From an uncultured Ruthenibacterium sp. (lineage in GTDB: Bacteria > Bacillota > Clostridia > Oscillospirales > Ruminococcaceae): 64,000 nucleotides of DNA. Of this stretch, positions 49,345 to 64,000 are shown one piece after another. Under the pieces are notes generated by a model. The model was not told the origin of the DNA. It worked only from the letters and a program-made list of their open reading frames with translations, and did not search any database. Location of the stretch: positions 8,168 to 72,167 of the forward strand of contig CAJUMH010000008.1 of the NCBI GenBank assembly GCA_910587145.1. The letters are read 5' to 3'. Made by a program: the position numbers and the translations under genes. Within the stretch, counting starts at the first letter, position 1. Each line of letters starts with the position of its first letter.

Positions 49345-50124
49345 TCACAGCTTGTGGCGCGGCAGGTTTGCATAAGCGTCTGTGCGGGGAAGCCAATCGA
49401 GAAACTGCTCCAATTCGATATCCCAAAATTTCCACTCGTGCTCAAAGCCGGGGACGTCGTCCCAGCGGTGCTTTACGCCCTTTTTCAAAAGCGTATTGCG
49501 GAACCGGACGACGCTCTCGTATAAAAAATCTTCCTGTCCGCAGCAGAGAAACAGCTCCGGCAGCGCGGCCCCCTCCGCAAGCCGGTTTTCCAATTCGGCA
49601 TACAAGTCCATCATCGGGGGCAGCTCGTGCCCCATATTATCTTTTCGGGCGCCGAGGTCCGTTCCCGGCGAGAAGGCCCCCACCGCGCACCACGCCGCGG
49701 GGCGCCCCAGGCCGTGGGCAAGCGCGCCATAGCCGCCCATGGAAAGGCCGGCGATATAGGTATCTTCCACGCGGCGGGAAACCGGAAAGTTCCCGCAGAT
49801 AAATTCCGGCAGCTCCTGCGCAATAAAATCGTAGTAATTCTCTCCGAAGGCATTGTTCATATAGCATTTATTGCCCACAGAGCACGTCACCACCGCAATC
49901 CTGCGCTCCTCTGCATAGCGCTCCATGGAGGTGTAGCGGTGCCAACACTTATAATCGTTTCCGTACCCGTGCAGCAGATACAGCACCGGATACGGCGCCT
50001 GCGGCGTGTGGCACGGTTTTTTGTCCGGGCCGAAATCGCAGGAGCTGATCGTCGGCAGCGTAATGGCGATATCCACTCCGCCGCGCAAAGAATACGATAC
50101 AAAATTACACATCAATTGTGCCAT
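49345..50124 (-). CDS. Alpha/beta hydrolase, esterase family (EstA/tributyrin esterase-like)
   Basis: YPVLYLLHG, nucleophile motif GLSMGG, CGQED, GFEHEWKFW. Confidence 0.9.
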   Translation of the reverse strand: MAQLMCNFVSYSLRGGVDIAITLPTISSCDFGPDKKPCHTPQAPYPVLYLLHGYGNDYKCWHRYTSMERYAEERRIAVVTCSVGNKCYMNNAFGENYYDFIAQELPEFICGNFPVSRRVEDTYIAGLSMGGYGALAHGLGRPAAWCAVGAFSPGTDLGARKDNMGHELPPMMDLYAELENRLAEGAALPELFLCCGQEDFLYESVVRFRNTLLKKGVKHRWDDVPGFEHEWKFWDIELEQFLDWLPRTDAYANLPRHKL

Positions 50125-50265
50125 AAAGCATTCTCCTTATTTTTAAATCGCAGCGGGAGCTTTTCAAAAGCTTTTTTGCAAAAGCCCCGCCTTATTGGCC
50201 GGTTCTCCCGGCTGCGGCTTTCACCGGCCTTTGCCTTCCTGTCAGGGGCGCATTCGGCGGTATCG

Positions 50266-52581
50266 TCAGCGTGTTTCTTCAAATGCGTCGCCCAGGCGCC
50301 AGGCCTCAAATTCGGTTACTTCCAGCCCGTCGGCGGATAAATTGTAGTAAATGCTCCCCTCTTCCGGGTAAATGCGCTGCGTAAAGCACAGCGCGCCCTC
50401 GTCGATAAACGCTTCGATGGACGAGCGGTCGATGAAAATGTGCAGATCGATCCGTTCCGCGGCTGTCTCGCAGGAGACAAGCTCGCGCAGCGCCCGTTCT
50501 TTACGGACAGAAAGCCCGTGCGGCAGCGCAAATGCGTTTTTTTCGCCGTCGTAAAGCAGCAGCACGCGGGAACCGTCGCGCGGGTTTGCGCGCAGCTCCA
50601 GAGCAAAGCCCGTCTGCGCACTGGCACGGCGAAACACCATGCGCAGTTCTATGCATTCTCCCGCCAACCCGCACAGTGGGTTTTCGCCTTTTTGCGCCAC
50701 AAAGCCGCCGCTTTGCAGGCATTCCTCCCGCAGTGCCGCAAGCTCTTCGGCGGGCTGCTGCAGCAGCGTATCGCCCCGCATATGAAGCACCCGCGGAACG
50801 GTGAGGGCGCCGGCCCAGCCGTCGGCCTGAGAGGGCATTTTCACCCGCCACATATCCATCCACGCAAAGAGCAGCACACGGCCTGTTTCATCCTCAAACA
50901 CCTGCGCCGCATAGTAGTTCAGCCCGTGATCCATCTCTCTGCATTCCCCGCCGGAAAACGTTCCGCTCTCCTCGTCAAAGCGACCCACACGATAGACGCT
51001 TTTGTGCCCTTTCATCTCCATCGGCGAAAAAATCAGCACCTCGCGCCCGTCCACCGTGCAGAAATTCGGGCATTCCCACATCACGCCCTGCTTGCCGTCG
51101 CTGCGCGCCATCACGCCGCGGTAGCGCCAGCGTTCCAGATCGTCCGATTCATACAGCAGCGCACAGCCTTTTTTGTGCTTTCCCGAGCCAACGACCATTT
51201 GCCATTTTCCGCTTTGCCGCCACACCTTGGGATCGCGAAACTCGGCGCTTGCCTCCGGCGGGTATGTGGGGATCACGGGGTTATTTGCGGATTTTACAAA
51301 GGTTTTTCCGCCGTCATGGCTGCGCGCAACACACTGGCATTCCCACTGATGCTTGCCGTCGTTGTGCGCGGTATAGATCAGCGTCAGAACGCCGCCGTCG
51401 TTTACCGCGCTGCCGGAAAAGCAGCCCGTCTCGTAGGGCTGGTCCGGCGCAAGGGCGATGGGCTCGTGCTGCCAATGCGCCAAATCCCGGCTGGTGGCAT
51501 GGCCCCAGTACATGGGGCCCCAATCCGAGGAATACGGATGCAGCTGATAAAACACATGGTAAACGCCATTGAATTGGATCAATCCGTTTGGATCGTTGAT
51601 CCAGCCGGACGGCGCCGCGATGTGATAGCGCGGCCGCCATTTGGCAAGGCGCACCGCCGGCGCGGCCTCGTCCATTTTCTGCTGGGCAAACACCAACAGC
51701 CGCCCCGCCTCTTTGGCACTGCCGGTGAGAATGCCCCGCAGACTTTCGATGGATTCAAACGGTATGGCAGCGGCGGCACAAACGCATTTCAACAGCCTTG
51801 CCAAAAACGCCTCCTCCTGCCAGAGCGCCGCCAGCCCGGCGCGCCTGGCGCCGGCGTCGAACAGCAAATACAGCATTGCGGCGGCGCCGAACGCCGCCTG
51901 TATGCCGCACGGCCCCTCCGCATTGCAGGCCGCCGTAAGAGCGCCGTGCGGTGTGCTTGCCGTTACACTTTCGGCCCCAAAATGCAAAACCGCCTGCCCC
52001 TCGTGCGGATGGTAGAGCGCATGGCCCACGGCTCGTACGCCCTCGTCCATGCACAAAATATCGGCGCGCCGCAAAAGCGCCTCTTTGGGCAGCGCGGTAA
52101 GATCCAGCAGGCTCAGCACCAGAATGCAATCCCTTTCGGCCGCCTGCCGTGCGAGCTGTTCGTACCGCGCTTCTCCTCTTTCGTCGTGCAGCAGCTCACC
52201 GCTGAAAAAAAGAATTCCTCCCCTCGGAATTTGCTCCCCGCTTCGGAATTCCGTTTCGGCTTGTGTTCCATCATCCGGTGCATATACCGATTTTCGACCT
52301 CTGCCGTCCTGAATGCGAACCGTGGTTTGCCCTTTGCAAACCACAACATCACCGGTATCCATTCCGGCCTTTTCTGCATCGCGCAGCAGACGGCTTCCCA
52401 ATGCATCGGATCGAACCGTCCCGCCAAGCGCACAGGGCACGCCAAACTGACGCAGCGCAAGCGCCGTCAGCAACGCCGCACCCCCCGGGCGCAGCAAAAA
52501 AAGCTCTCCCTCCGGCTCTGCCGCTGGCAAAGCCGAAAAAACAACGGACAATTCCCCCATCGTCCGAATATAACGATCCAT
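50266..52581 (-). CDS. Fusion: degenerate PfkB-type kinase domain + GH32 beta-fructofuranosidase / sucrose-6-phosphate hydrolase
   Basis: GH32 motifs WINDPNG, WGHATS, FSGSA, FRDP, WEC intact; N-terminal ~290 aa PfkB-like (PGGAA, GTVRSDALG) but without GAGD. Confidence 0.88.
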   Translation of the reverse strand: MDRYIRTMGELSVVFSALPAAEPEGELFLLRPGGAALLTALALRQFGVPCALGGTVRSDALGSRLLRDAEKAGMDTGDVVVCKGQTTVRIQDGRGRKSVYAPDDGTQAETEFRSGEQIPRGGILFFSGELLHDERGEARYEQLARQAAERDCILVLSLLDLTALPKEALLRRADILCMDEGVRAVGHALYHPHEGQAVLHFGAESVTASTPHGALTAACNAEGPCGIQAAFGAAAMLYLLFDAGARRAGLAALWQEEAFLARLLKCVCAAAAIPFESIESLRGILTGSAKEAGRLLVFAQQKMDEAAPAVRLAKWRPRYHIAAPSGWINDPNGLIQFNGVYHVFYQLHPYSSDWGPMYWGHATSRDLAHWQHEPIALAPDQPYETGCFSGSAVNDGGVLTLIYTAHNDGKHQWECQCVARSHDGGKTFVKSANNPVIPTYPPEASAEFRDPKVWRQSGKWQMVVGSGKHKKGCALLYESDDLERWRYRGVMARSDGKQGVMWECPNFCTVDGREVLIFSPMEMKGHKSVYRVGRFDEESGTFSGGECREMDHGLNYYAAQVFEDETGRVLLFAWMDMWRVKMPSQADGWAGALTVPRVLHMRGDTLLQQPAEELAALREECLQSGGFVAQKGENPLCGLAGECIELRMVFRRASAQTGFALELRANPRDGSRVLLLYDGEKNAFALPHGLSVRKERALRELVSCETAAERIDLHIFIDRSSIEAFIDEGALCFTQRIYPEEGSIYYNLSADGLEVTEFEAWRLGDAFEETR

Positions 52582-52647
52582 TTTTTACTCCTTTTACGCA
52601 AAGGGAAGCTTTGATCCCATCAACGGGCTGCATCAGAGGTTCCCTCG

Positions 52648-53541
52648 TCATCCGGGAAACGGCTGCTTCAATACGAACCGCAGCATCGCTTCCATGGGCA
52701 AGGGGCGCTGGGCAAGCGGCATGCCATAGGTTTCCGCCCGCCTGTCCCACAGCAGGGATTCCATCGTCAGATCGCAGGAATAAAGAATTTCCTCGTGCTG
52801 CAGCAGATACTTCACCGCACCCAAAAACAGGGTGTGATCCGCAAACAGAATTCGCCCGCTGCCCGCGTTCACCGCCTGCTGCAGATAATACGCGCCGGAG
52901 CCGATCTCACTGTTCATCAGCCGGATCTTTTTCAGGCTGACACCCGCCGTTATATTTTTCAGCACCTTCCCCTGTTCATAGTCCATTACAATATGGGAAA
53001 ACGTTTCGTCCTGTAAACAGGCCTCGACCTCCCGATAAAAAAAAGCGCCCAAATCGATTTGCCGGCTGCCGGGAACATGCTTTGCGCAGTTTTTCAGGCT
53101 GACGTTCAAAAACAGAACGCGATCTTCAAACAGCGGCGTATACGGCGTCATCGGCCGAATGCTCATCACATAAATGGCCGAGTACACGCCCACGCCGCGC
53201 TGCAGCATTGCCTCCATCTGCTCGGGCTGCTCGAAGAACGCGGTGATCACGCTGTCGCAGCGCTGTTGCAGCTCCGATATCAGCCCGGCAAACAGCTGCG
53301 TGGCGGCAGCGTTTTCCAAACACACCTTTTCCATCAGAACAAACGTATCCATCCGCTGGTTCATCCGCAGCCGGCGGGCCTGCAGGTTGGGCTGATATTG
53401 TAAGCCCTCCACTGCCTTCAGCACCCGCCTGCGTGTTTCCTCGGATACCGCTTTGGTATTGTTCAGCACATGAGATACCGTTGCCGTGGAAACGCCTGCG
53501 CGGCGTGCGACGTCCTTAATGTTGCTGTTGCTTGAAGCCAT
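52648..53541 (-). CDS. LacI family transcriptional regulator with divergent, short C-terminal domain
   Basis: [21 protein letters not shown]...[13 protein letters not shown] and hinge helix. Confidence 0.85.
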
Positions 53542-53617
53542 AAACAGGATGTCTCCTTTTTGGGATCGCCGCACGGTATCCGCTTGCCGCCAGCTCCGCC
53601 GGCAACCGACCCGCTTT

Positions 53618-53631
53618 GGAAATCGTTTAAC
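53618..53631. promoter_or_regulatory. LacI-type operator, copy 1
   Basis: GGAAATCGTTTAAC with AAnCGnTT core, upstream of lacI. Confidence 0.6.
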
Positions 53632-53790
53632 TTATACTTTGCGAAAATCGTCTATTTGTTTCTAATCATAGCACATATTTTTCGATTTGGCAAGAAGCGA
53701 AATGTCTGATTTTCGCGTTAAAGCCTATACTTTTTTCACAAATTTTTAATGGTTTTTATTGTTATCTTATACAAATATATGCATTTCCCC

Positions 53791-53844
53791 TTGACTTTTC
53801 GTCTCATTCATGATAGGGTAAAAACGCAGAGAAAATCGTTTAAC
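53791..53844 (+). promoter_or_regulatory. Promoter of the sugar ABC operon with LacI-type operator copy 2
   Basis: TTGACT, 17 bp, TG-n-TAGGGT; GAAAATCGTTTAAC at 53831-53844 just downstream. Confidence 0.6.
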
Positions 53845-53903
53845 CTACTGTTTCGCAAGATTCGTCTATTTTGCAAAACAAAAAATTTACGGAGGTTCAA
53901 GTT

Positions 53904-55244
53904 ATGAAAAAGCTGCATCGAATTTCGGCATTTCTGCTCTGCTTTGTGATGCTGGTTACTCTGATGGCCGGCTGCGGCAGCGCATCGTCTTCGGCGCCGG
54001 CCGCGGGTCCTTCCGCATCCGCGGGCCCAGCCGACGCTTCCGAGCCTGCAGGCGCGGACGAGGACGTCAAGATCCTGCACATTTCCATCGCTGCCAGCGA
54101 GCAGGAAAAGAAAGACTACGAAGAATGCATCGCCCGTTTTGAGGCTACCCACCCCGATTTTAAGGTGGAGGCCAACTGGTCCAGCGGCGGCACCTGGCAG
54201 GAGATCTGCGATAAGCTGATCGTTCAGATCGCCTCCGGCGAAGCGCCAGACGTGATCCGTGTTGCGGTGGAGGGCACGCGGATGTTCGTTCATAACGATC
54301 TGTTCCTGCCGTTGAACGAATATCTGGAAAATGACGAAACCGGCAAAGAACTGCGCGAGCAGATCCCGCAGGCTGCATGGGATTCTTTTACGATTGACGG
54401 CAATATCTACGAGATCCCCTCCGACGCGAACTCCATCATTCTGCAGTACAATCCCAAAATGTATGCGGACGCCAATCTTGCCGAGCCGGGCGACGACTAT
54501 AGCTGGGAGCAGTTTGTTTTTGATCTGCAGGCGCTTTCCCACGGCGAGGGCGACGAAAAGGTTTACGGCACGATGATCATGCCCACCTTCCTGTGGCCCT
54601 GGTTCTATGCCAACGGCGTCAGCCCGCTGAACGACGATTGGACCGGCTCGAATTTGAGCGACCCCAAAATCAAAGAGACCCTGCAAAATCTGCACGATCT
54701 GATCTACAAATACGGTGTGGCCCCTGTTCCCGAGGCGAACGACGATGTCGGCAATATGTTTGCCGCAGGCCGCACCGCCACCATCTGCATGGGCATGTTC
54801 ATGGTAGCCACCTACGAGGCGAACGGCTTTGCCGATTTTGATGCGGCGGTAATGCCCCGCGGCGCAAACGGCGGCCAAGGCTGCTTTGGCATCGGCGGTG
54901 TTGGCGTAACCGCCAACTGCAAATATCCGCAGGCCGCGTATGAGCTTTGCTGCGAATTTGCCGCAGCAGAGGTTTCCGCACGCCAGGCCAAAACGGGCAC
55001 TTCCGTACCGCTGCGTTCCGCCGAAGCGCAAAGCGAGGATTTCCTGGTCCATGCGCCGCACATCAGCCGCTTCTACGAAGAAATTGAAAACGGCGCGGTA
55101 CTGCCTGCCCCCGACAACTATTCCGAGATGAGCACCATTATCGCCACCATGGGCACCAATATCCTGACAAACGCGATGGACATTGACGAGGCCATCACGC
55201 TGGCAGACAAGGAGCTGACGGAATCCTTCAAGAATCTGGGTTAA
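53904..55244 (+). CDS. Sugar ABC transporter substrate-binding lipoprotein
   Basis: Start after GGAGG; lipobox MAGC; IASGEAPDV, DGNIYEIP, FAAGRTA. Confidence 0.9.
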   Translation: MKKLHRISAFLLCFVMLVTLMAGCGSASSSAPAAGPSASAGPADASEPAGADEDVKILHISIAASEQEKKDYEECIARFEATHPDFKVEANWSSGGTWQEICDKLIVQIASGEAPDVIRVAVEGTRMFVHNDLFLPLNEYLENDETGKELREQIPQAAWDSFTIDGNIYEIPSDANSIILQYNPKMYADANLAEPGDDYSWEQFVFDLQALSHGEGDEKVYGTMIMPTFLWPWFYANGVSPLNDDWTGSNLSDPKIKETLQNLHDLIYKYGVAPVPEANDDVGNMFAAGRTATICMGMFMVATYEANGFADFDAAVMPRGANGGQGCFGIGGVGVTANCKYPQAAYELCCEFAAAEVSARQAKTGTSVPLRSAEAQSEDFLVHAPHISRFYEEIENGAVLPAPDNYSEMSTIIATMGTNILTNAMDIDEAITLADKELTESFKNLG

Positions 55245-55490
55245 CGCACCGTTTACCGCTCCGGCACGGCGGCCGAAAAGGTTCGCCGTGCCGGAATCTC
55301 GTTTCTTCGGGAAACCGGCGCTTGCCCCGGCTGTCCCGGCGAGGGGCAGGGCAAACGCCATAAAAATCAGGGCGCGCTGCAAAATGGGGCCGCTGACAGG
55401 CAAAGCCCCCATGCACCCAAAAGGGAAACCGGGCTCGCCGCAGCTGCCTTTTGCGGGGCGAGCCCCACAACGAAAAGAGGCGATTGTTTT

Positions 55491-56387
55491 ATGAAACGGA
55501 AATCCTCGCTGATCGTCCGCAAGGAGGCGATCGCAGGCTGGCTGTTTTGCCTGCCGGCGCTGCTTTTGTTTTTGTGTTTTATCCTGCTGCCAACCGCTGC
55601 CATGCTGGTACTGTGCTTTACAAAATACAATATGCTAAAGCCTCCCGCCTTCAACGGGTGGGATAATTTTCTGCGGCTGCTTTCCGATTCGAAGCTTCGG
55701 ACAGTGGCGCTCAACACAGGCAAACTTGCCGTATGCGCGGTTATTTTAAATGTGCTGATCGGTTTGCTTCTGGCTTTGATGATCGCAAACCGGCGCAACG
55801 GCATTTTCAGCTACATCATCCGGCTTTTGTACTTTTTTCCCGCGATCGTGGCGCCGGTGTATATTGCCGTGGTGTGGTCGATCCTGCTGGCAAAGGATAC
55901 GGGCCTTATTAACTATTATCTTGGCAAGATCGGCATTGCGCCGATCGGATGGCTCACAGATCCGTCCGTCAGCCTCTGGTCGGTGATCGGGATCGACGTA
56001 TGGCGCAACATCGGCTTTATCATGATCATTTTTCTTGCCGGGATCAAAAACATCTCGTCCGATTATTACGAGGCTGCCGCGCTGGACGGCGCGAGTACGT
56101 TCCAGCTGGCGAAAAACATCACCATCCCGCTGCTGACGCCCTCCATTCTGTTTGTATTGATCATCAACATCATCGGCGAATTGAAGAGCTTTGATATTCC
56201 CAATATTATGACGAAGGGCGATCCGGTGGACAGCACGCGCACGATGGCGATGTATATCTATAATGTTGCGTTTCAAAAAATGGATATGGGCTATGCCTGC
56301 GCCGTCTCGCTGCTGTTTGTGCTTGTGATTATGGTCGTCACCGTGCTTCAGTTCAAAATAAGCGACAGGTGGGTGAATTATGATTAA
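55491..56387 (+). CDS. Carbohydrate ABC transporter permease
   Basis: YYEAAALDGASTFQLAKNITIPLLTP EAA motif. Confidence 0.92.
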   Translation: MKRKSSLIVRKEAIAGWLFCLPALLLFLCFILLPTAAMLVLCFTKYNMLKPPAFNGWDNFLRLLSDSKLRTVALNTGKLAVCAVILNVLIGLLLALMIANRRNGIFSYIIRLLYFFPAIVAPVYIAVVWSILLAKDTGLINYYLGKIGIAPIGWLTDPSVSLWSVIGIDVWRNIGFIMIIFLAGIKNISSDYYEAAALDGASTFQLAKNITIPLLTPSILFVLIINIIGELKSFDIPNIMTKGDPVDSTRTMAMYIYNVAFQKMDMGYACAVSLLFVLVIMVVTVLQFKISDRWVNYD

Positions 56388-57219
56388 AAGCAAAGGAAAA
56401 CGCGCCGGAGATCTTGCGGTGGCAGCGCTGGTGATTCTCTTCGGCGTGATCATATTCATTCCGTTTTTGTTTATGTTCTCCTCCTCCATGCGCACACCGG
56501 CCGAAGCGTACAAGCTGCCCCCTGCGATCCTTCCCGAGCGGATCATGCTTGATAACTATGTCTCGCTCTTTTGCTCTGATATTCCGTTCGGCCCGATGTT
56601 TTTGAACAGCGCCATTGTTACGGGCTGTGTCATCATCGGCCGGCTGATCGTGGGCTGCATGGCCGCTTACGCCACCGCAAAAATCCGCTTTAGGGGGTCT
56701 TCGGCCATATTTTTGCTGTTTCTCACGTCCATGATGATCCCCGTACAGGCTACGATCATCCCAACCTTTATTGTCATGAGCCGTCTGCACCTTGTGAATA
56801 CGCTGTGGGCGCTGATCATTCCGGGCCTTTTCGATGCGTTCGGCATCTTTCTGATGCGCCAGAGCATGGCGACCATTCCGGACGCCATTCTCGAATCCGC
56901 CAAGATCGACGGCGCGAGCCATTTTCGCATCTGCTGGCAGATCATGGTGCCGATGGTAAAAAGTACGCTTGCCACACTGGTGGTTCTAAGCTTTAACGGC
57001 GTGTGGAACGATTATTTCGCGCCGTATATCTATCTCTCCGATTGGGATAAAATGACGGTTCCTCTCGGCGTGGCGGCCATGAAAGGCTACATGGGTTCCG
57101 GCAATCCGTCCGTTGTTTTGGCGGGCGTCAGCATTGCCGTTCTGCCCATCCTCGTCATCTTTTTATTCGGCCAGCGCTATATCGTAGAGGGGCTTACCTC
57201 CTCGGCCGTAAAGGGATAA
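56380..57219 (+). CDS. Carbohydrate ABC transporter permease
   Basis: ILESAKIDGASHFRICWQIMVP EAA motif; WNDYF. Confidence 0.92.
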   Translation: MIKSKGKRAGDLAVAALVILFGVIIFIPFLFMFSSSMRTPAEAYKLPPAILPERIMLDNYVSLFCSDIPFGPMFLNSAIVTGCVIIGRLIVGCMAAYATAKIRFRGSSAIFLLFLTSMMIPVQATIIPTFIVMSRLHLVNTLWALIIPGLFDAFGIFLMRQSMATIPDAILESAKIDGASHFRICWQIMVPMVKSTLATLVVLSFNGVWNDYFAPYIYLSDWDKMTVPLGVAAMKGYMGSGNPSVVLAGVSIAVLPILVIFLFGQRYIVEGLTSSAVKG

Positions 57220-57248
57220 ACTGCCTGTTCAGAGTGCAAACAACATCC

Positions 57249-57298
57249 AAAAAAACCGCATTCATTCAGACGGCCTGGGCCTGTGTGAATGCGGCTTT
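57249..57298 (+). terminator. Probable terminator after the ABC operon
   Basis: CCGCATTCA ... TGAATGCGG stem with flanking A7 and CTTT. Confidence 0.5.
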
Positions 57299-57486
57299 CG
57301 TCTGCCGAAAAAGATTGCCAAATGAAATTGCTTTTTCTTTCGATTTCCGCTAAAATAGAAATACGCCCTTGCAGGAGGGCAGTATGGGAAGGAAGCCGTG
57401 AGGCGGGAAAGCGCCGGCGCGCTGGCATGCGTCTGCCGTGCGGCGTTTTTTCGACAAAACCGCCCCCTTAAAAAAGTGAGGTACCT

Positions 57487-58611
57487 ATGAATCAAAAGGA
57501 AGTCGGCGAGCTGCGCCGCCGTTTTCAGCCCGAAAAAAGCACCGTACGCCGCATATACGGCTGCTATGTCAACAATATCGGCGAGATCGTCGCCTATCTG
57601 GACGAATCCATCGGCACGATGCCGCCGGAGGAAGCCGAGCAGTATCTGGGCCTTTTTAAAAAGGCGCTGTCCGGCACGATTGGCAAGAATCTGATCGATA
57701 TTGTTTTTTCTACCCAGCAGGTGGCGGACAGCGACGAGCACCGCCTGCTCAGCGCGCTGCGCAATTCCGAGCTGCGGGACGAAACCGCGCGGGAGGCGTT
57801 TTTTCAAACGGTGATCCGATCGATGGATCTGGACAGCAGCTATGTGATCCTGCTTGCGCACAACGTTTACGATGTGCCCGTTCGCGGCAAGGGCAGGGAT
57901 CCGTTCGCCGAGGCCGGCGATACGGTGTTCTCGTTTATCGTGTGCTGCGTGTGTCCGCTGAAGGAGGGCAAGGCATCGCTTTCCTTCTGCCCGGCCGAAA
58001 ACGAATTTCACAGTCTTGTGCCCAGCCCCACTGTCTGCCCGCCCGAGCTGGGCTTTTTGTTCCCGGCGTTCGACGATCGGGCCGCAAATATTTACAGCGC
58101 GCTGTTCTATTCCCGCAAGCCCAACGAGCTGCACCAGAATTTTTTGGATACCGTGTTTTGTGTGGAGCCGCCGATGACGGCCGGCGAGCAAAAGGAAGCG
58201 TTCCAGACGGCGCTGAGCGAATCGCTGGAAAGCGCATGCAGCCTGGAGGTGGTGCAAACCGTTTACGAGCAGCTCACAGAGCGCATGGAGCAGCACCGGG
58301 AAAGCAAAGACCCCGAGCCGCTGCTTTTGACGGCGAAGGAGGTAGGCGCAATTTTGCAGGAGAGCGGCGTTGAAGAACCGCGCGTGACAGCCTTCTGCGA
58401 AAACTGCGGCCGGCAGTTTGGCGACGGCGCCGCCCTGAGCCCCGCCAATCTGGTTGACGGCAGGCACTTCGAGGTAAAAACGGCTGAGGCCACCATCTCG
58501 CTGAGCGCCGCGGACAGCTGCCTGATCGAAACGCGCATCGTAGACGGCAGAAAATATCTGCTCGTCCCCGTGGGCGAGGGGCTGGAGGTAAACGGCATGC
58601 CGGTGCACTGA
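57487..58611 (+). CDS. DUF4317-like conserved protein
   Basis: MNQKEVGELRRRF, IYGCYVN, GFLFPAFDDRAANI patterns typical of this Clostridia family; RBS GAGGT. Confidence 0.8.
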   Translation: MNQKEVGELRRRFQPEKSTVRRIYGCYVNNIGEIVAYLDESIGTMPPEEAEQYLGLFKKALSGTIGKNLIDIVFSTQQVADSDEHRLLSALRNSELRDETAREAFFQTVIRSMDLDSSYVILLAHNVYDVPVRGKGRDPFAEAGDTVFSFIVCCVCPLKEGKASLSFCPAENEFHSLVPSPTVCPPELGFLFPAFDDRAANIYSALFYSRKPNELHQNFLDTVFCVEPPMTAGEQKEAFQTALSESLESACSLEVVQTVYEQLTERMEQHRESKDPEPLLLTAKEVGAILQESGVEEPRVTAFCENCGRQFGDGAALSPANLVDGRHFEVKTAEATISLSAADSCLIETRIVDGRKYLLVPVGEGLEVNGMPVH

Positions 58612-58911
58612 GGGGGCCGGGGCAGCGCAAAGACGCGCCGGTGCACTTTGGAAAAACAGCGCGCAAAAATCAGCGCCCCTTCCGGCAATGCAAGGCCAAA
58701 AGGGGTGCCGATCTGCTGTTTTACATCGAATTCTTTCTGCAAATTGCGGCCAAGGTTTTATTTTGCGGCACGCCGTTCTTGCGGGGCTTTCCGCGGAGAA
58801 GTACCACAGGCCCCCGTAATATTTCGGCAGCCGGCCGGTATGGCTCCGAAGCGGCGATATCAGGCCGCCCGGCGGATACGTTTTCAAAAAACGCATCCGC
58901 CGGGTGTTTTT

Positions 58912-60618
58912 TTATAAGGACTGAAAACGGAAGAGCTCTTTGCCTGCGGTTTCTTCGGTAATGGAGATGTCGAACGCGGCGCTCTCGAAATCGGCGTTCA
59001 GCACGGCTTTTTGCCCGGCCGCACGCCAGGTAAGGCAAAGGCTGCTGCCCGCAGTTTGTGCCGCAACGGCCGCCTCCTCGCAGAACACCGCAAACCCGTT
59101 GCGCATGCGCAGCAGCTCCAGCTGCCGCGCCACCACCGGCCGGCCAAGGCGCTGCGCGGCCTCTTCGGCCGTCAGGTTCGTGCGGTTGATCTCCTTATGG
59201 CCGCCCGCGCCCGCGCGGCGCATGGCCTCGTAATCGTTTTTGCCCGCGAACAGATCCAAATACCACACCTGCGGCTTGCCCGGCATAAACAGCTGCACCG
59301 CGCGCGCCAGCAGCATGCGGCGGTCGTCCTCGCCCAAGGCGCTGTAATAAGTGGCATTCACCTGATAGTATACGTTCTTCTGCCCGTGCAGATCCTTCAC
59401 GTATCCGCCGCGCGCCACCACCGTATCGATCAGCCGCCGGATGCTCCCCTCGTCCAGCAGGCCCTTCAGATCCAGCAGCGGGATGCCGTCGTGACAGCCC
59501 AGCATGTTGACGGTGCGGATGCCCTTTTCGGTAATCTCGTCGATCCAGCGCTTTAAATACGTTCCGTTCCTGCGCTCGAAGGCATCGATCAAAAGCCCCG
59601 GCAGGAAGAAATCGTACACCATATACCCCTTATCCGCCAGCAGCGCATACGTTTTTTCCGCGTAACCGGCGTGGATCTCCGGCAAAAGCGTCAAGCCGAG
59701 CGGCGCGGCAATGGCCTGCACCTTGTCCAGTAGCTCCCACGTGCCGGGATCATTCAAAAAGTTGCGCGCACCCACCTCCTTGGGCGCGTAGGCAAAGGCA
59801 TCCAGCCGCACGATGGCCGCGCCGTAATCCGCCAGCGTCTGCAGCGTATTGCGGTAGTAATCCCATACCAGCGGCGAACGGATGTTCAGATCCATCTGCC
59901 CCAAATATTTGCGGCGGCTCTCCAGATAATCCACGGCCTGCGCCTTGCAGTTGTTCCAGCGGCCGAGATCTATCTCGCGCGGGGCTTTGCCCTCGGCCAG
60001 CGCCCCGTTTACAAGCTTTGCCAGCGCCTCGGCCGTGCCGTACTGCAGCGGCATCGCGCGCATCAGATCCTGCGCGTCAACGGGGCTGTAGCGCACCTCC
60101 TGATAAAACGTGTTCCAATACGGCACATCGCGCCCGTCGGGAAAGCGCACCATCAGGATCGGCAGGCCGGGCTTGCGAAAGAACATATCCTTGATGAGCT
60201 CCGCGTCCGGCTGGATGTAGCCGTCTTTTGTGATTGAGCCGTGGCCCTCCCAAAAGCGGTTCCAGTCGATGAAAAAATCACGGTAGGGCGAGGCATCGCC
60301 GTTTTTTAAAATATCCTGAAACTCTTTCGAGAGCACCGACGCGTGGTTGAGGATGAAATCGAGCGCAAGATCGATGCCGAGCGCCTTCAGATCCTCCAGC
60401 GCCTCGGGGCTGGCCAGCGTTTCGGAGAGGCCGTAATCGATCAGCGAAAAGCCGCGGTCCAGATCGGTATTAAAGATGCTGGGCAGGATATAAAACGAGC
60501 GGAACGCATCCCGCAGCTCCGGCCTTTTTAGCAGCCCCACGATATCGGCGAGCGTGCCGCCCACGCTGTCCGGATAGGCGTTCAGCATCACGCCCCACGA
60601 CGCTTTTTTCGCCTCCAT
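58912..60618 (-). CDS. GH13_18 glycoside phosphorylase (sucrose phosphorylase-like), substrate uncertain
   Basis: MLNAYPDS, LDFILNH, QMDLN, RLDAFAY (nucleophile), LPEIH (acid/base), LGCHDGIP, PQVWYLDLFAGKND, KEINR. Confidence 0.88.
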   Translation of the reverse strand: MEAKKASWGVMLNAYPDSVGGTLADIVGLLKRPELRDAFRSFYILPSIFNTDLDRGFSLIDYGLSETLASPEALEDLKALGIDLALDFILNHASVLSKEFQDILKNGDASPYRDFFIDWNRFWEGHGSITKDGYIQPDAELIKDMFFRKPGLPILMVRFPDGRDVPYWNTFYQEVRYSPVDAQDLMRAMPLQYGTAEALAKLVNGALAEGKAPREIDLGRWNNCKAQAVDYLESRRKYLGQMDLNIRSPLVWDYYRNTLQTLADYGAAIVRLDAFAYAPKEVGARNFLNDPGTWELLDKVQAIAAPLGLTLLPEIHAGYAEKTYALLADKGYMVYDFFLPGLLIDAFERRNGTYLKRWIDEITEKGIRTVNMLGCHDGIPLLDLKGLLDEGSIRRLIDTVVARGGYVKDLHGQKNVYYQVNATYYSALGEDDRRMLLARAVQLFMPGKPQVWYLDLFAGKNDYEAMRRAGAGGHKEINRTNLTAEEAAQRLGRPVVARQLELLRMRNGFAVFCEEAAVAAQTAGSSLCLTWRAAGQKAVLNADFESAAFDISITEETAGKELFRFQSL

Positions 60619-60620
60619 GC

Positions 60621-61573
60621 TCACACCCCCTGCGCGTCCATTAAGGCGCGGTATTCCTCGTAGCTCAGCAGCTCACCGCTCTTGGAGACGATCATCTTCG
60701 CCTTATGCGCGCAGCTGTCCAGCTCTTTTTGCTCGATCTCCAGCACCATTGTGGTAAACGCGCTGTCGGTTTTGCCGTCGCGGCCCCGGGCACGGCGATG
60801 CGCGCGCGTTTCCTCCGGCGTGCTGTTCAGCAGAACGGGGATATCCACGCCCCGCAGCAGGTCGCTGTTGCCGTGCGTCCATTCGATCACCAGGACCGAA
60901 ATCTCCGAAAAATCGACCTCATCGTACCAGCGCGCGTCCTCGGTGCGCCCCATGCGCTTGAGCCACAGGCTCTTTTGGCCCGATTTGAACGCCGCAAGAA
61001 TGGCGCTCAGCTCGTCGTAATCCTGCTCGTGCTTTGTGCCAAGATACCCCGCCAGCGCCTTGCGGCCCGCAGCCTGATACACCTGCAGCCACGGCTCGTC
61101 CAGCGCCGCGCTTGGGTCGGCGTCCACCTCGGCCGCCCACAGCCTTTGCAGCGCGCCGCCGTTTTGCTCGGTATAAACGCCCTCCCGCAGCATGCCGCGC
61201 ATGCCCCCCGTGCGAAATACGCGCACACGCTCGGCATCGTTATACTGCGGAATACGGCGGGGTAGTTATCGCCCGAGAGCGTGTACGCGCCCACGCCCAC
61301 GCTGCAAAAATAGTGGCTCAGCAGCGAAGCCGTCTCGGATTTTCCCACGCCCGAGCCGCCGCACACCGCCACAACCGCGCGGCCGGTACCCTCCGCCGCC
61401 TTGGCCGCCAGCGGCACGAGCCGGGGGAAGATGAGGTTTGCCTTGGCAATATGCCCGGCGTTGATCTCCACCTTATCGCCGGGCATATCCCCGTGGGGGA
61501 TGTCCGCCGGAACCTCCGGCGGCTGCCAGTTTTCGATCGATGCCGCCAGCGCGGCCAGTGTCCTTTTTTCCAT
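60621..61573 (-). pseudogene. P-loop kinase (uridine kinase/phosphoribulokinase-like), split by a 1-nt frameshift near 61260
   Basis: Walker A CGGSGVGKS, SGDNYP in the first frame; RRIPQYNDAER...LVIEWTHG...RRARGRD in the second; one added C gives 317 aa. Confidence 0.78.
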
Positions 61574-61611
61574 AGCTGAATCCCCGTCCCCCTGTTTTTT
61601 CGAGATTTTGT

Positions 61612-63072
61612 TTATAAAAGCTGTTCTTTGATGATCTCGGCCATAAACGCGGAAAGCTCTGCAAAATGATCCGTTGCATACACAACGCCGCCGCATGCCG
61701 ATACGTTCATGTTGAACAGATAGCGGCAGAACCATTCCACGCTCACCAGCAGTTCGCCCTCGCGGTGCAGCGCCTCGCAGTACATCGCGGCCATGTTGTC
61801 ATCCACAAGGCAGCCGATCACGCCGCGGGCTGCCTGCACCGTGCGGCCGTCGGCCAGCGTCAGCGTCGCCTCCAGGCCGGCCTCGTCCGTTTCGTACCGT
61901 GCGCCGAACACCCGGGCCAAAAAGCGCAGGCTCACGTACAAATACTCGCCGCGCACGATCTGCCCGCCGTTCAGGCCGTGGTATTTCAGCTTTTGCCACA
62001 GCACAGGCCGCACGGGCATTTCCACCGCGGCGTTGCCGAACCACGCCTTCCGGCTTTGATCCGTGCAGGCCAGCGCAAAGCTGTCGCCCACGGGGTCGCA
62101 CACTGTTTTTTCCCTAATCAGCGAGCCGTCCGGCGCGCGGCGCACACCGGAGAACAGATAGTTCCAGCAATAAAACGCCTCATCCAGCGTTTGCCCGTGA
62201 TCGCGGTTTTTGATATCCAGATAGACAAGATCGGCCTTTTTGCCCTTGTAGAACGCGAAATTATGCTCGCCCTCGATGTGGATCTGCGGGATGGGGTCGC
62301 ACTCGTTGATCTTCATCCAATAAAAGCGGGCATACTTGTTGACGGTGGCCTCGTCGTAGCGGCCTCCCGGGGGCAGGCCGTTCTTTTCTGGGCGGGACTG
62401 CCAGATCGCCATCGGGCCGCCCAGATTTTTGATCCTGCCGTTTTCGTCAAACAGCAGCTGCGGCTTTGTGGGGCCGCCGGAGCCCGCCGCGCCCGCAAGC
62501 AGCTGGCCCCTGTAGCGGGCGAACATACTCGTCATCAGGTTGCCCATAGACATGCCCTGCATGAACATGCGGCCGGTGTCGATGTTGTATTTTTCCTGCA
62601 TATGGACGATGAGCGCCTCCAGGAACTTCATGTCATGATTGTCCTGCCAGCCCTTGGGCGCAGGCTGTACGGGCAGGTCGGGCGCGTCGTTTGGATCCCA
62701 GTTGTCAAAAACGCCCTCCACCGTCCACATCCGTTTGGAGTGCGCGTCCGGGAACACGCAGATAAAGCCGTCCCGGTCGGCCGCGAGCGTCTACGAGGTA
62801 TAGATGGCGTGGCCCCAGCCTGTCATCAGACCGCCGTGGTTGCCCACCACCAGCGGCACGGGCTTAGTGCCGTCGTAGCCTGCGGGAACATATTCGTACC
62901 AGCGGTCTTCCACGCCGTCCGCCAATACACCCGCTGCCTCCCGCAGGCGCTCGGGGTAGACTTGCGAGTTGTTGCCGTTTTCGTTCACCACGATATCGCT
63001 GCCTTTGATGGCCTCCGGCAGATATTCGCGGTTGGCGTCGTCCGGCGTACCCGCGCGCAGTTTGATCTTCAT
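61612..63072 (-). pseudogene. PHB-depolymerase/LpqC-like esterase with C-terminal copper-amine-oxidase-N-like domain, interrupted by in-frame TAG at 62791-62793
   Basis: MKIKLRAG...YVPAGYDGTKPVPLVVGNHGG...AIYTS*TLAADRDGFICVFP...QGMSMGN (GxSxG)...YLYVSLRFLARVFGA; both ORF halves are in the same frame. Confidence 0.8.
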
Positions 63073-63088
63073 AGATTTCCCTCCCTTG

Positions 63089-63856
63089 TTATTCGGCCGT
63101 GGCCCACCGCACGGCGGCGGGCAGGCTGCACTGGCACGCGCCCAGATCCGCACCCGGCTCCAGCTGCGCCGTCTGGGCGGCGGCGCCCAGCAGCCCGGCC
63201 AGACAGCGGTTTTCTTCCTCCACGCCGGAGCCCTGCTCCCACGCGAAGAAAAATTTGCCACGGGCGGGCTTTTGGGCCAACGCGTACAGGTCGTGCCCGC
63301 TGCCGGCAAAGGCGTTCAAATCGCCGAACACGGCCTTCAGCGAGGCTTCGGTGTGGAAAATGCCGGTTTCCTGCCCGGCGAGGGCTCTGCGGCAGACAGC
63401 CTCCAGATCCAGCACGCCGTTCAGCGCGATGGCTTTGGAGAAGGTTTCCGGATGCTTCAGCGCCATTTTTACCGCGCCATAGGCGCCCGTACCCGCGCCG
63501 CCGATCCAGTTTTGCGCGGGATCCTCGGAAATGGGCAGATTGTTGCGGCAGATGCCGGGCAGCTCGGTGTTCATAAATTCCTCGTACCGCGGACCGTACC
63601 GCATGGAGGTGCAAAGGCTGTGGTGCTGGTCCGGCGCGATGATAAAGATACCGTACCGCGCGGCGCAGGCCTCGGCGGGCGTGGAGAGCCAGTCCGACGC
63701 CGCGCCGCCCTCGGTGTGCAGCAGCCACAGCACCGGGTATTTTTTCTCGTGCGCCGTATCCTTCAGCGCCAGCAGGTTCATCTCCGGCAAAAAAACACGC
63801 GCGGAAAACGAACCGCAGGTAATGACAGACAGCGCATTCATTTCAATTTGTGCCAT
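63089..63856 (-). CDS. Esterase-family alpha/beta hydrolase homologue lacking the catalytic serine
   Basis: YPVLWLLH, GPRYEEFMNTELP; nucleophile elbow reads GAGTGAYGA instead of GxSMGGYGA; no C-terminal HxW. Confidence 0.75.
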   Translation of the reverse strand: MAQIEMNALSVITCGSFSARVFLPEMNLLALKDTAHEKKYPVLWLLHTEGGAASDWLSTPAEACAARYGIFIIAPDQHHSLCTSMRYGPRYEEFMNTELPGICRNNLPISEDPAQNWIGGAGTGAYGAVKMALKHPETFSKAIALNGVLDLEAVCRRALAGQETGIFHTEASLKAVFGDLNAFAGSGHDLYALAQKPARGKFFFAWEQGSGVEEENRCLAGLLGAAAQTAQLEPGADLGACQCSLPAAVRWATAE

Positions 63857-63868
63857 GTTCTCCCCTCC

Positions 63869-64000
63869 TTACTCGCTGGCCCGGACAAACGTCTCTTTGA
63901 TCAGGCCCTTGGCAACCAGCCAATCCAGATATTTTTTGACGTGCTTATCGCAATATTCCCAGTTGTGATAGCCGTGATCGACCACGCGGTACGCGTCGAT
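63869..64000 (-). CDS. C-terminal end of an esterase-family protein (partial, starts beyond the window)
   Basis: Manual translation IDAYRVVDHGYHNWEYCDKHVKKYLDWLVAKGLIKETFVRASE*; GxHxW motif as in the esterase at 49345. Confidence 0.7.
   Translation of the reverse strand: MDAYRVVDHGYHNWEYCDKHVKKYLDWLVAKGLIKETFVRASE

Follow-up and report, generated by a model that had tools for sequence, protein, structure and literature searches.

The stretch of DNA considered here, the window, comprises 64,000 nucleotides (nt) from an uncultured Ruthenibacterium sp. (G000:C8:8168-72167), beyond which a further 1142 nt of the contig remain. Its final portion holds a cluster of five co-directional minus-strand genes, confirmed from the open reading frames (ORFs) and the contig sequence beyond the window to run from position 58912 to window coordinate 64696 (Table 1). 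In the direction of transcription these encode a PF00756 esterase, a Ser-less homologue of it, an esterase carrying a C-terminal stalk-like domain, a P-loop kinase that is a stand-alone sucrose-kinase (SK) homologue and a GH13_18 phosphorylase. Judged from its sequence, the cluster is what remains of a widespread kind of operon, one that is being lost in this genome. We give an even chance to the view that, in intact versions of this operon, the esterases de-acylate imported acyl-sucrose while the kinase and phosphorylase degrade the sucrose, the copy described here being in decay.

The first-pass annotation had described five tightly spaced genes, and the intergenic distances are indeed short, at 2 (or -4), 38, 16 and 12 nt counted upstream from the phosphorylase. 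The genes themselves are real, but two of them, those of the kinase and the esterase-stalk protein, are broken, which that annotation had not noticed. Within the five-gene stretch no promoter-like site was found, where 1.5 would be expected by chance. Co-direction, short gaps and the lack of an internal promoter-like site together predict a single operon, the genes of which would be co-transcribed. A hairpin about 200 nt 3' of the phosphorylase stop codon is a possible end of the transcription unit, with the proviso that terminator-like sites across the region number 9 against 6.3 expected, which is not above chance and makes the hairpin weak evidence. An Rfam scan of positions 52000-64000 matched no RNA family. 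Upstream of position 64000 the cluster could be followed only a short way: the last 44 codons of the 275-amino acid (aa) esterase gene lie within the window and its other 696 nt beyond, next to the remnant of a beta-lactamase-family esterase, after which the contig ends.

Table 1. Features of the five-gene cluster and its surroundings, in window coordinates.
Feature	Position	Strand	Remarks
GH13_18 phosphorylase, IcSPP/RgSPP type	58912-60618/60624	minus	intact; 570 aa from GTG 60624 or 568 aa from ATG 60618
P-loop kinase, stand-alone sucrose-kinase (SK) homologue	60621-61573	minus	pseudogene
PHB-depolymerase-family (CE1-like) esterase with C-terminal stalk-like domain	61612-63072	minus	pseudogene; 486 codons; at best a distant family member
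Ser-less PF00756 esterase homologue	63089-63856	minus	255 aa; Pfam E 1.1e-9
PF00756 esterase	63869-64696	minus	275 aa; GFSMG + HGYHNW; L001 2370-3197
Terminator-like hairpin	58676-58705	minus	11-bp stem then T-run
LacI	52648-53574	minus	ORF; Pfam label from identical gene in L011
GH32-PfkB fusion	50266-52581	minus	771 aa; ORF; Pfam label from identical gene in L011
PF00756 esterase	49345-50124	minus	intact triad; ORF; Pfam label from identical gene in L011
SBP	53871-55244	plus	ORF; Pfam label from identical gene in L011
Two ABC permeases	55491-57219	plus	ORFs; Pfam labels from identical genes in L011

The three esterase-like proteins of the cluster differ in their catalytic equipment. The 275-aa esterase retains an intact GFSMG…D…H triad in the PF00756 alignment, and its best solved relatives are 4RGY (E 4.3e-41) followed by 6VH9 and 2UZ0. 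The protein itself resembles the EstA/FphF tributyrin esterases and shares 89% identity with its orthologue (Pfam E 4.3e-13) at L008, a locus of another species with a phosphorylase 79% identical to that of the window. The 255-aa homologue had been called Ser-less by the first-pass annotation, a description that holds and can be extended, as two more residues of the triad, the His and the acid, are gone too: GAGTG stands in place of GxSxG, Ala occupies the His position and the alignment has a gap where the acid should be. Its L008 orthologue is 79% identical with the same triad losses, and its ratio of nonsynonymous to synonymous substitution rates (dN/dS) of 0.16 equals that of the phosphorylase and points to purifying selection. 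Together, these two observations indicate that the 255-aa protein is a maintained, non-catalytic pseudo-enzyme. Among the scorable PF00756 esterases in other loci, 37 of 39 keep GxS(M/L)G and two have GYAMG (a 40th is a 67-residue fragment). In the Christensenella-type loci L087 (~3905) and L091 (~8343), a PF00756 gene directly 5' of the kinase encodes GYAMG, a Ser to Ala change with the His kept; such copies constitute a second, independent nucleophile-less esterase variant.

The esterase-stalk protein contains a GMSMG motif but scores only E 7e-7 and 28.9 bits against TIGR01840/PF10503, for which the cut-off is 107.85. Its relatives, at E 6e-14 to 4e-15, likewise fall below the cut-off of the PHB-depolymerase profile, and its best solved relative is 8DAJ, an esterase of that family (E 4e-5). 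It appears to be, at best, a distant PHB-depolymerase-family member. The copper-amine-oxidase-N-like domain that had been assigned to it corresponds to a weak match of a C-terminal domain of ~110 aa to Cu_amine_oxidN1 (PF07833; E 0.0023, 18.3 bits, gathering threshold 24.2), which lies under the Pfam threshold but is seen again in the equivalent C-terminal position of three paralogues. The closest L008 paralogue is a 501-aa copy of 74.5% identity. By eye, none of the window esterases has a signal-peptide-like N-terminus, and they should thus act on imported small molecules.

The distribution of this gene arrangement was surveyed across prokaryotes, with each species represented by a single genome and a 7-sequence kinase alignment as the query. 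At least 587 kinase matches were returned, and the counts below come from the best 80 loci, which are related to one another and do not represent independent samples. The kinase gene lies directly 5' of the GH13_18 gene in 77 of the 80, and the two genes also occur as a natural fusion, P0249 (868 aa), in which an alignment places the kinase at residues 13-301 and the phosphorylase at residues 309-864, the latter 63% identical to the window enzyme. A second kinase-phosphorylase fusion, P0339 (754 aa), is predicted, as are the esterase-kinase fusions P0246 (572 aa, PF00756) and P0243 (686 aa, beta-lactamase fold); some of these three could be gene-calling read-throughs, since P0249 alone was checked by alignment.

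Esterase genes gather closely around this pair. With a panel of esterases built from loci of the same kind, at least one panel member was found within 10 kb in 51 loci, at least two in 39 and at least three in 24. In 34 of 78 loci, an esterase gene stands directly 5' of the kinase gene and in the same orientation. Esterase density declines from 2.51 per 10 kb at 0-2 kb from the pair to 1.41 at 2-4 kb, and to 0.45, 0.61 and 0.37 at 4-6, 6-8 and 8-10 kb, respectively, against 0.047 per 10 kb over the whole of G000, the single genome that supplied the background. The association recurs across Oscillospiraceae, Christensenellaceae, Limiplasma, Erysipelotrichaceae and Roseburia. In all five neighbourhoods that were fetched, with phosphorylase identities of 68% to 89% and taxa ranging from Oscillospiraceae-like to Erysipelotrichaceae, the pair is situated amid several esterase genes, usually along with an ATP-binding cassette (ABC) transporter and a regulator. 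Esterase genes number 10 at L008 and 6-7 at L072 and L090, which are intact loci. The link between esterases and the kinase-GH13_18 pair, drawn by the first-pass annotation from this cluster by itself, is borne out by its recurrence across taxa, by the fall in density with distance and by the esterase-kinase fusions.

For intact loci, gene content suggests a pathway of four steps. A small acylated sucrose would be imported by an ABC transporter, with which a DUF3502-type binding protein and a sensor-kinase/AraC-type response-regulator pair are often encoded. Several cytoplasmic carboxylesterases, belonging to the PF00756, PHB-depolymerase/CE1-like, GDSL, COesterase, BD-FAE, SASA, CE4 and beta-lactamase-fold families, would then strip its acyl groups. 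The stand-alone sucrose kinase would phosphorylate the freed sucrose with ATP, presumably at the 6F position, and the GH13_18 enzyme would use phosphate to split sucrose 6F-phosphate into glucose 1-phosphate and fructose 6-phosphate. Under this scheme, the kinase and phosphorylase would form a conserved sucrose-processing core to which different lineages attach different trimming enzymes. A fuller version, in which gut and rumen Clostridia and Erysipelotrichia possess a dedicated acyl-sucrose locus combining complementary esterases, a sucrose kinase and a strict phosphorylase, with the Ser- and His-less homologue as a binding or scaffolding subunit, is more tentative and in our estimate falls somewhat short of an even chance. 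The candidate substrates of such a locus would be sucrose esters from plants (phenylpropanoid or acetyl), the acylsucroses of Solanaceae and food additives of the sucrose-ester kind.

Several points weigh against the assignment of these loci to acylated sucrose. The identity of the substrate is deduced solely from gene neighbourhood, and the operon from gene layout. No panel esterase accompanies the pair in 29 of the 80 loci, so the pair must also work without esterases. The esterase panel was itself derived from such loci, the background is that of one genome and the loci are not independent. Furthermore, AgaSK of Ruminococcus gnavus, the characterized enzyme that carries a related sucrose-kinase domain, is reported to phosphorylate sucrose at C6 of the glucose (PMC7688924), which is not the substrate of its partner phosphorylase RgSPP, as RgSPP needs the 6F-phosphate (PMC6521584). 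Thus, the hand-off from kinase to phosphorylase is not established even in the model system.

These points leave room for an alternative that we consider unlikely but by no means negligible, namely that the kinase and phosphorylase constitute, like their R. gnavus counterparts, an ordinary sucrose module, and that the esterases are merely clustered or co-regulated plant-carbon genes that act on acetylated or feruloylated oligosaccharides or on xenobiotic esters, not on sucrose esters. The loci devoid of panel esterases are in keeping with such an arrangement, as are the five of 80, from Lachnospiraceae and Butyricicoccus, in which a GH36 alpha-galactosidase takes their place, like in R. gnavus. 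Of the esterase families, the CE1-like, CE4, GDSL, BD-FAE and SASA enzymes are best known from hemicellulose de-esterification, and weak matches to a xylanase/feruloyl-esterase model were seen. Nevertheless, among 132 unlabelled neighbour ORFs of esterase-rich loci, the top 25 Pfam families include no glycoside hydrolase family, and hence none for xylan, mannan or pectin, the frequent families being ABC permeases, DUF34/NIF3, further hydrolases and binding proteins. A merely incidental clustering also fits poorly with esterase genes that are directly 5' of the kinase and co-directional with it, in some cases fused to it, and most dense within 2 kb of the pair, and esterases with no discernible signal peptide, as in the window, should act on small molecules that have been imported.

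The assignment of the phosphorylase to sucrose 6F-phosphate draws on its closest solved relative, 6S9U (E 1.6e-175), which is IcSPP from Ilumatobacter coccineus, a strict sucrose 6F-phosphate phosphorylase (PMC6720575). Catalysis by IcSPP involves D223, E264 and D327, whereas fructose 6-phosphate is bound by R152, K364, Q378 and K434, with Y377 nearby; mutagenesis ties R152, K364, Y377, Q378 and K434 to specificity for sucrose 6F-phosphate, and a YYQ motif is characteristic of the IcSPP clade (PMC6720575). The window phosphorylase keeps the catalytic Asp/Glu/Asp, with VRLDAFA, LLPEIH and GCHDGIP aligning with D223, E264 and D327, along with all five of the specificity residues, and the same five are conserved in 73 of 74 other full-length kinase-adjacent GH13_18 proteins. 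Against the TIGR03852 sucrose phosphorylase model the enzyme scores 307 bits, under the 334-bit cut-off. It is predicted to be of the sucrose-6F-phosphate phosphorylase type and to possess the corresponding activity. Compared with IcSPP it has about 44-50 additional aa, inserted between the regions aligned with IcSPP residues 180 and 177. This insertion was considered as a marker of esterase loci and rejected, as it is found in most loci, including those of the GH36 type, and the 12 loci that lack it include some that have esterases and some that do not.

The kinase, for its part, contains a GGSGVGKSE Walker A motif, and its two fragments share 70-73% identity with P0122, an intact relative encoded at L008. 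A HMMER search of 1.84 billion representative proteins with the kinase yielded 433 relatives. One of these, P0310 (933 aa), is an orthologue of AgaSK, its first 720 residues matching PDB 2YFN (R. gnavus AgaSK) end to end, and P0122 aligns with its C-terminal SK domain at E 1e-49 with every conserved block shared. The search of the kinase against solved structures gave only marginal P-loop matches (E of at least 0.1) because 2YFN and 2YFO cover AgaSK residues 1-720 only, without the kinase domain; against Pfam and NCBIfam, only sub-threshold P-loop matches (Zeta_toxin, PRK, APS_kinase) were obtained. The isolated RgSK domain of AgaSK phosphorylates sucrose (PMC7688924), and throughout the R. 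gnavus clade the kinase gene is followed by that of the phosphorylase (PMC6521584). Given its homology to this sucrose kinase and the IcSPP-type residues of its partner, the kinase of the cluster most likely acts on sucrose, ahead of the phosphorylase. The first-pass annotation had instead assigned it to the moiety released by cleavage, an order of events that these same two features do not bear out. Phosphorylation at the 6F position would follow from the tight coupling of the kinase to the phosphorylase.

It has also to be considered that the GH13_18 enzyme might cleave an alpha-glucoside other than sucrose, such as glucosylglycerate, glucosylglycerol or one with a new acceptor, with the kinase phosphorylating the aglycone. 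Phosphorylases of glucosylglycerate and glucosylglycerol are indeed members of the subfamily, and genes for the former often occur with glycerate kinase genes (PMC7178133); the insertion of ~44 aa relative to IcSPP also speaks for this reading. That reading is nonetheless very improbable. The five fructose 6-phosphate residues and the YYQ loop are all retained, the homology of the kinase is to a sucrose kinase, over the entire domain, and not to glycerate kinases, and the insertion is present in GH36 loci too, with no link to esterases. The narrower idea of a glycerate kinase paired with a glucosylglycerate phosphorylase was ruled out by the SPP-type acceptor residues and the sucrose-kinase homology.

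Whatever the substrate of intact loci, the pathway cannot run as written in this genome, owing to the loss of the kinase and one esterase. The esterase-stalk gene is interrupted by an in-frame TAG at 62791-62793, where 7 of 7 aligned orthologues and paralogues have TGG (Trp); read in one continuous frame it gives AIYTS-TAG-TLAADRDGFICVFPD, against YSSWTLLAEREGFICVFPD in an intact relative. In the kinase gene, one base has been lost from the C-run at 61259-61262, the extra base being present in 18 of 18 aligned relatives, and the frame splits between GDNYP and RRIP. The first frame ends with TLSGDNYP and RRIPQYNDAER continues in the shifted frame, whereas the intact relative P0122 reads GDNYPRRIPRYNDAER. 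Programmed -1 slippage on this C-run was considered and judged unlikely, all 18 aligned relatives being in frame. Neither the kinase nor the phosphorylase has another copy in the G000 genome. At the 5' end of the cluster, the beta-lactamase-family esterase is reduced to its C-terminal 75 residues and adjoins AT-rich, unrelated DNA.

Other sequences of the same species carry these lesions in differing combinations. The ENA contig L011 (99.78% identical, 7 mismatches) has both the kinase and the esterase-stalk lesions, and contig L100, which is 100% identical and reaches 1476 nt past the end of contig C8, has the same split genes. The AT-rich DNA beside the esterase remnant (L100 1-1527, past window coordinate 65142) carries small minus-strand ORFs, and the 5' junction in L100 looks like an insertion or rearrangement that took away the start of the operon. 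The sister lineage L101, of 99.6% identity and the same species, shares the esterase-stalk TAG but has five Cs at the C-run and an intact kinase of 317 aa; its SK frame is uninterrupted, as it is in every other relative. In L101 it is the phosphorylase that is broken, a single A missing from an A6 run (window 59657, L101 5966) dividing it into 342 + 236 aa. The L100 and L101 alleles were recovered via their protein cluster, and the phosphorylase allele of the L100 haplotype (P0393) and the truncated L101 fragment (P0392) occur in 70 and 55 blocks of a public collection, respectively. Two scans of JGI metagenome contigs found no alternative alleles at the two lesion sites. That the lesions stem from faulty assembly or sequencing, or that recoding circumvents them such that the operon is functional, is the least probable of the alternatives: the kinase (C4 vs C5) and L101-only phosphorylase (A5 vs A6) frameshifts do fall in homopolymer runs, which are typical sites of sequencing error, but the TAG is a base substitution and not an error of length, the kinase and esterase-stalk lesions are repeated in L011 and L100, the phosphorylase alleles of both haplotypes come from several sources, L101 has five Cs in its kinase but bears a different lesion, and the 5' esterase gene is physically truncated.

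A sister lineage that keeps the kinase but frameshifts the phosphorylase points to a locus in decay in the species as a whole. In comparison with L008, four esterase genes from the interior of the locus are missing from the species as well, as are the GDSL and COesterase genes at its flanks. The dN/dS values relative to L008 are nevertheless 0.06-0.24 across all genes, which indicates that selection acted over most of the divergence and that the decay is recent. With three distinct lesions in two lineages, the locus offers a clean case of the loss of a catabolic operon within a species.

Further sucrose-related genes lie alongside the cluster at 49345-57219 (Table 1) and may or may not be functionally linked to it. 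Of these, the LacI, GH32-PfkB and PF00756 esterase genes (49345-53574, minus strand) make up a second unit of esterase plus sucrose enzyme adjoining the cluster. In the surveyed loci, GH32 adjoins the kinase-phosphorylase pair in 5 of 80. A DUF4317 gene (57487-58611, plus strand) is convergent with the phosphorylase gene, and the same gene is found near the phosphorylase in the 89% identical relative L012 too, where all beyond it differs. Among the 132 unlabelled neighbour ORFs, 11 are DUF34/NIF3-family genes (L016 7110-7973, L072, L078, L090 and others), typically placed between SASA-type and GDSL-type esterase genes. A MatE efflux transporter gene is often present within the esterase-type loci, namely in L014, L018, L023, L026, L028 and L030, and also in L032, L034, L035, L051, L057 and L058; it is speculated to export the released acids. 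Lastly, the locus L061 (CAVGBO010000052.1), a Clostridia-type arrangement of kinase, phosphorylase, LacI and GH13_18, is filed under a Phocaeicola dorei bin, probably through a binning error.

Sucrose esters reach the gut from plants, as phenylpropanoid sucrose esters and acylsugars, and from food additives such as sucrose fatty-acid esters and sucrose acetate isobutyrate. Full-text literature searches found no microbial pathway for such compounds. The conserved esterase/sucrose-kinase/phosphorylase locus, with at least 587 kinase matches in the species collection, provides a concrete set of candidate enzymes. The locus type is common in gut Clostridia, and in the lineage described here it probably once allowed feeding on acylated sucrose. 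The first-pass annotation did not recognise the combination of genes as a described pathway. This stands for the esterase-coupled version, for which no paper was found in the full-text searches made, but not for the kinase-phosphorylase pair, which is already known from R. gnavus (PMC6521584). The near-universal adjacency of kinase and phosphorylase genes, along with their natural fusions, predicts that the kinase supplies the phosphorylase. This bears on the unsettled origin of sucrose 6F-phosphate in the GH13_18 literature, where its physiological source is called unknown (PMC7178133); if the prediction is true, the kinase would be that long-sought source.

The enzymes and loci described here invite comparison with four characterized systems. 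At the level of the single enzyme, IcSPP (6S9U) resembles the window phosphorylase in its catalytic triad, YYQ loop, R152, K364 and K434, and differs from it in having no insertion of ~44-50 aa. The gene clusters that pair a glucosylglycerate phosphorylase with a glycerate kinase (PMC7178133) present the same adjacency of a GH13_18 phosphorylase and a kinase, although that kinase is of another family and the acceptor residues there are of the glucosylglycerate type, in contrast to the SPP type found here. Polysaccharide utilization loci, for example those for xylan and mannan (PMC8165983, PMC8040265, PMC10154613), likewise cluster CE1, CE4, GDSL and BD-FAE esterases, which probably differ in specificity, with a transporter and a regulator. 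The present loci differ from them in having no frequent backbone-cleaving glycoside hydrolase and in esterases that look cytoplasmic by eye; the sugar-processing enzymes of the present loci are restricted to the kinase-phosphorylase pair, joined at times by GH32 or GH36.

The closest parallel is the Rgaga1 locus of R. gnavus E1, which encodes AgaSK and RgSPP (PMC6521584, PMC7688924). Its kinase belongs to the same family as the stand-alone kinase (E 1e-49), and the two share the blocks GGSGxGK, SGDNYPRRIP, NDxER, EWTHG, STPExT…RNRD and IEQ. A phosphorylase of the same SPP clade is encoded directly 3' of the kinase in both, and an ABC transporter and regulator are found nearby. The kinase described here differs in being a stand-alone protein with a ~60-aa N-terminal extension and a ~56-aa internal insert, and in being a pseudogene in this genome. 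Both arrangements would follow the same logic, in which a decorated sucrose is trimmed and the sucrose then processed. In Rgaga1, as in other raffinose loci, it is a GH36 alpha-galactosidase that trims the substrate to sucrose, and in the proposed loci that place would be taken by carboxylesterases, up to 10 of them per locus.

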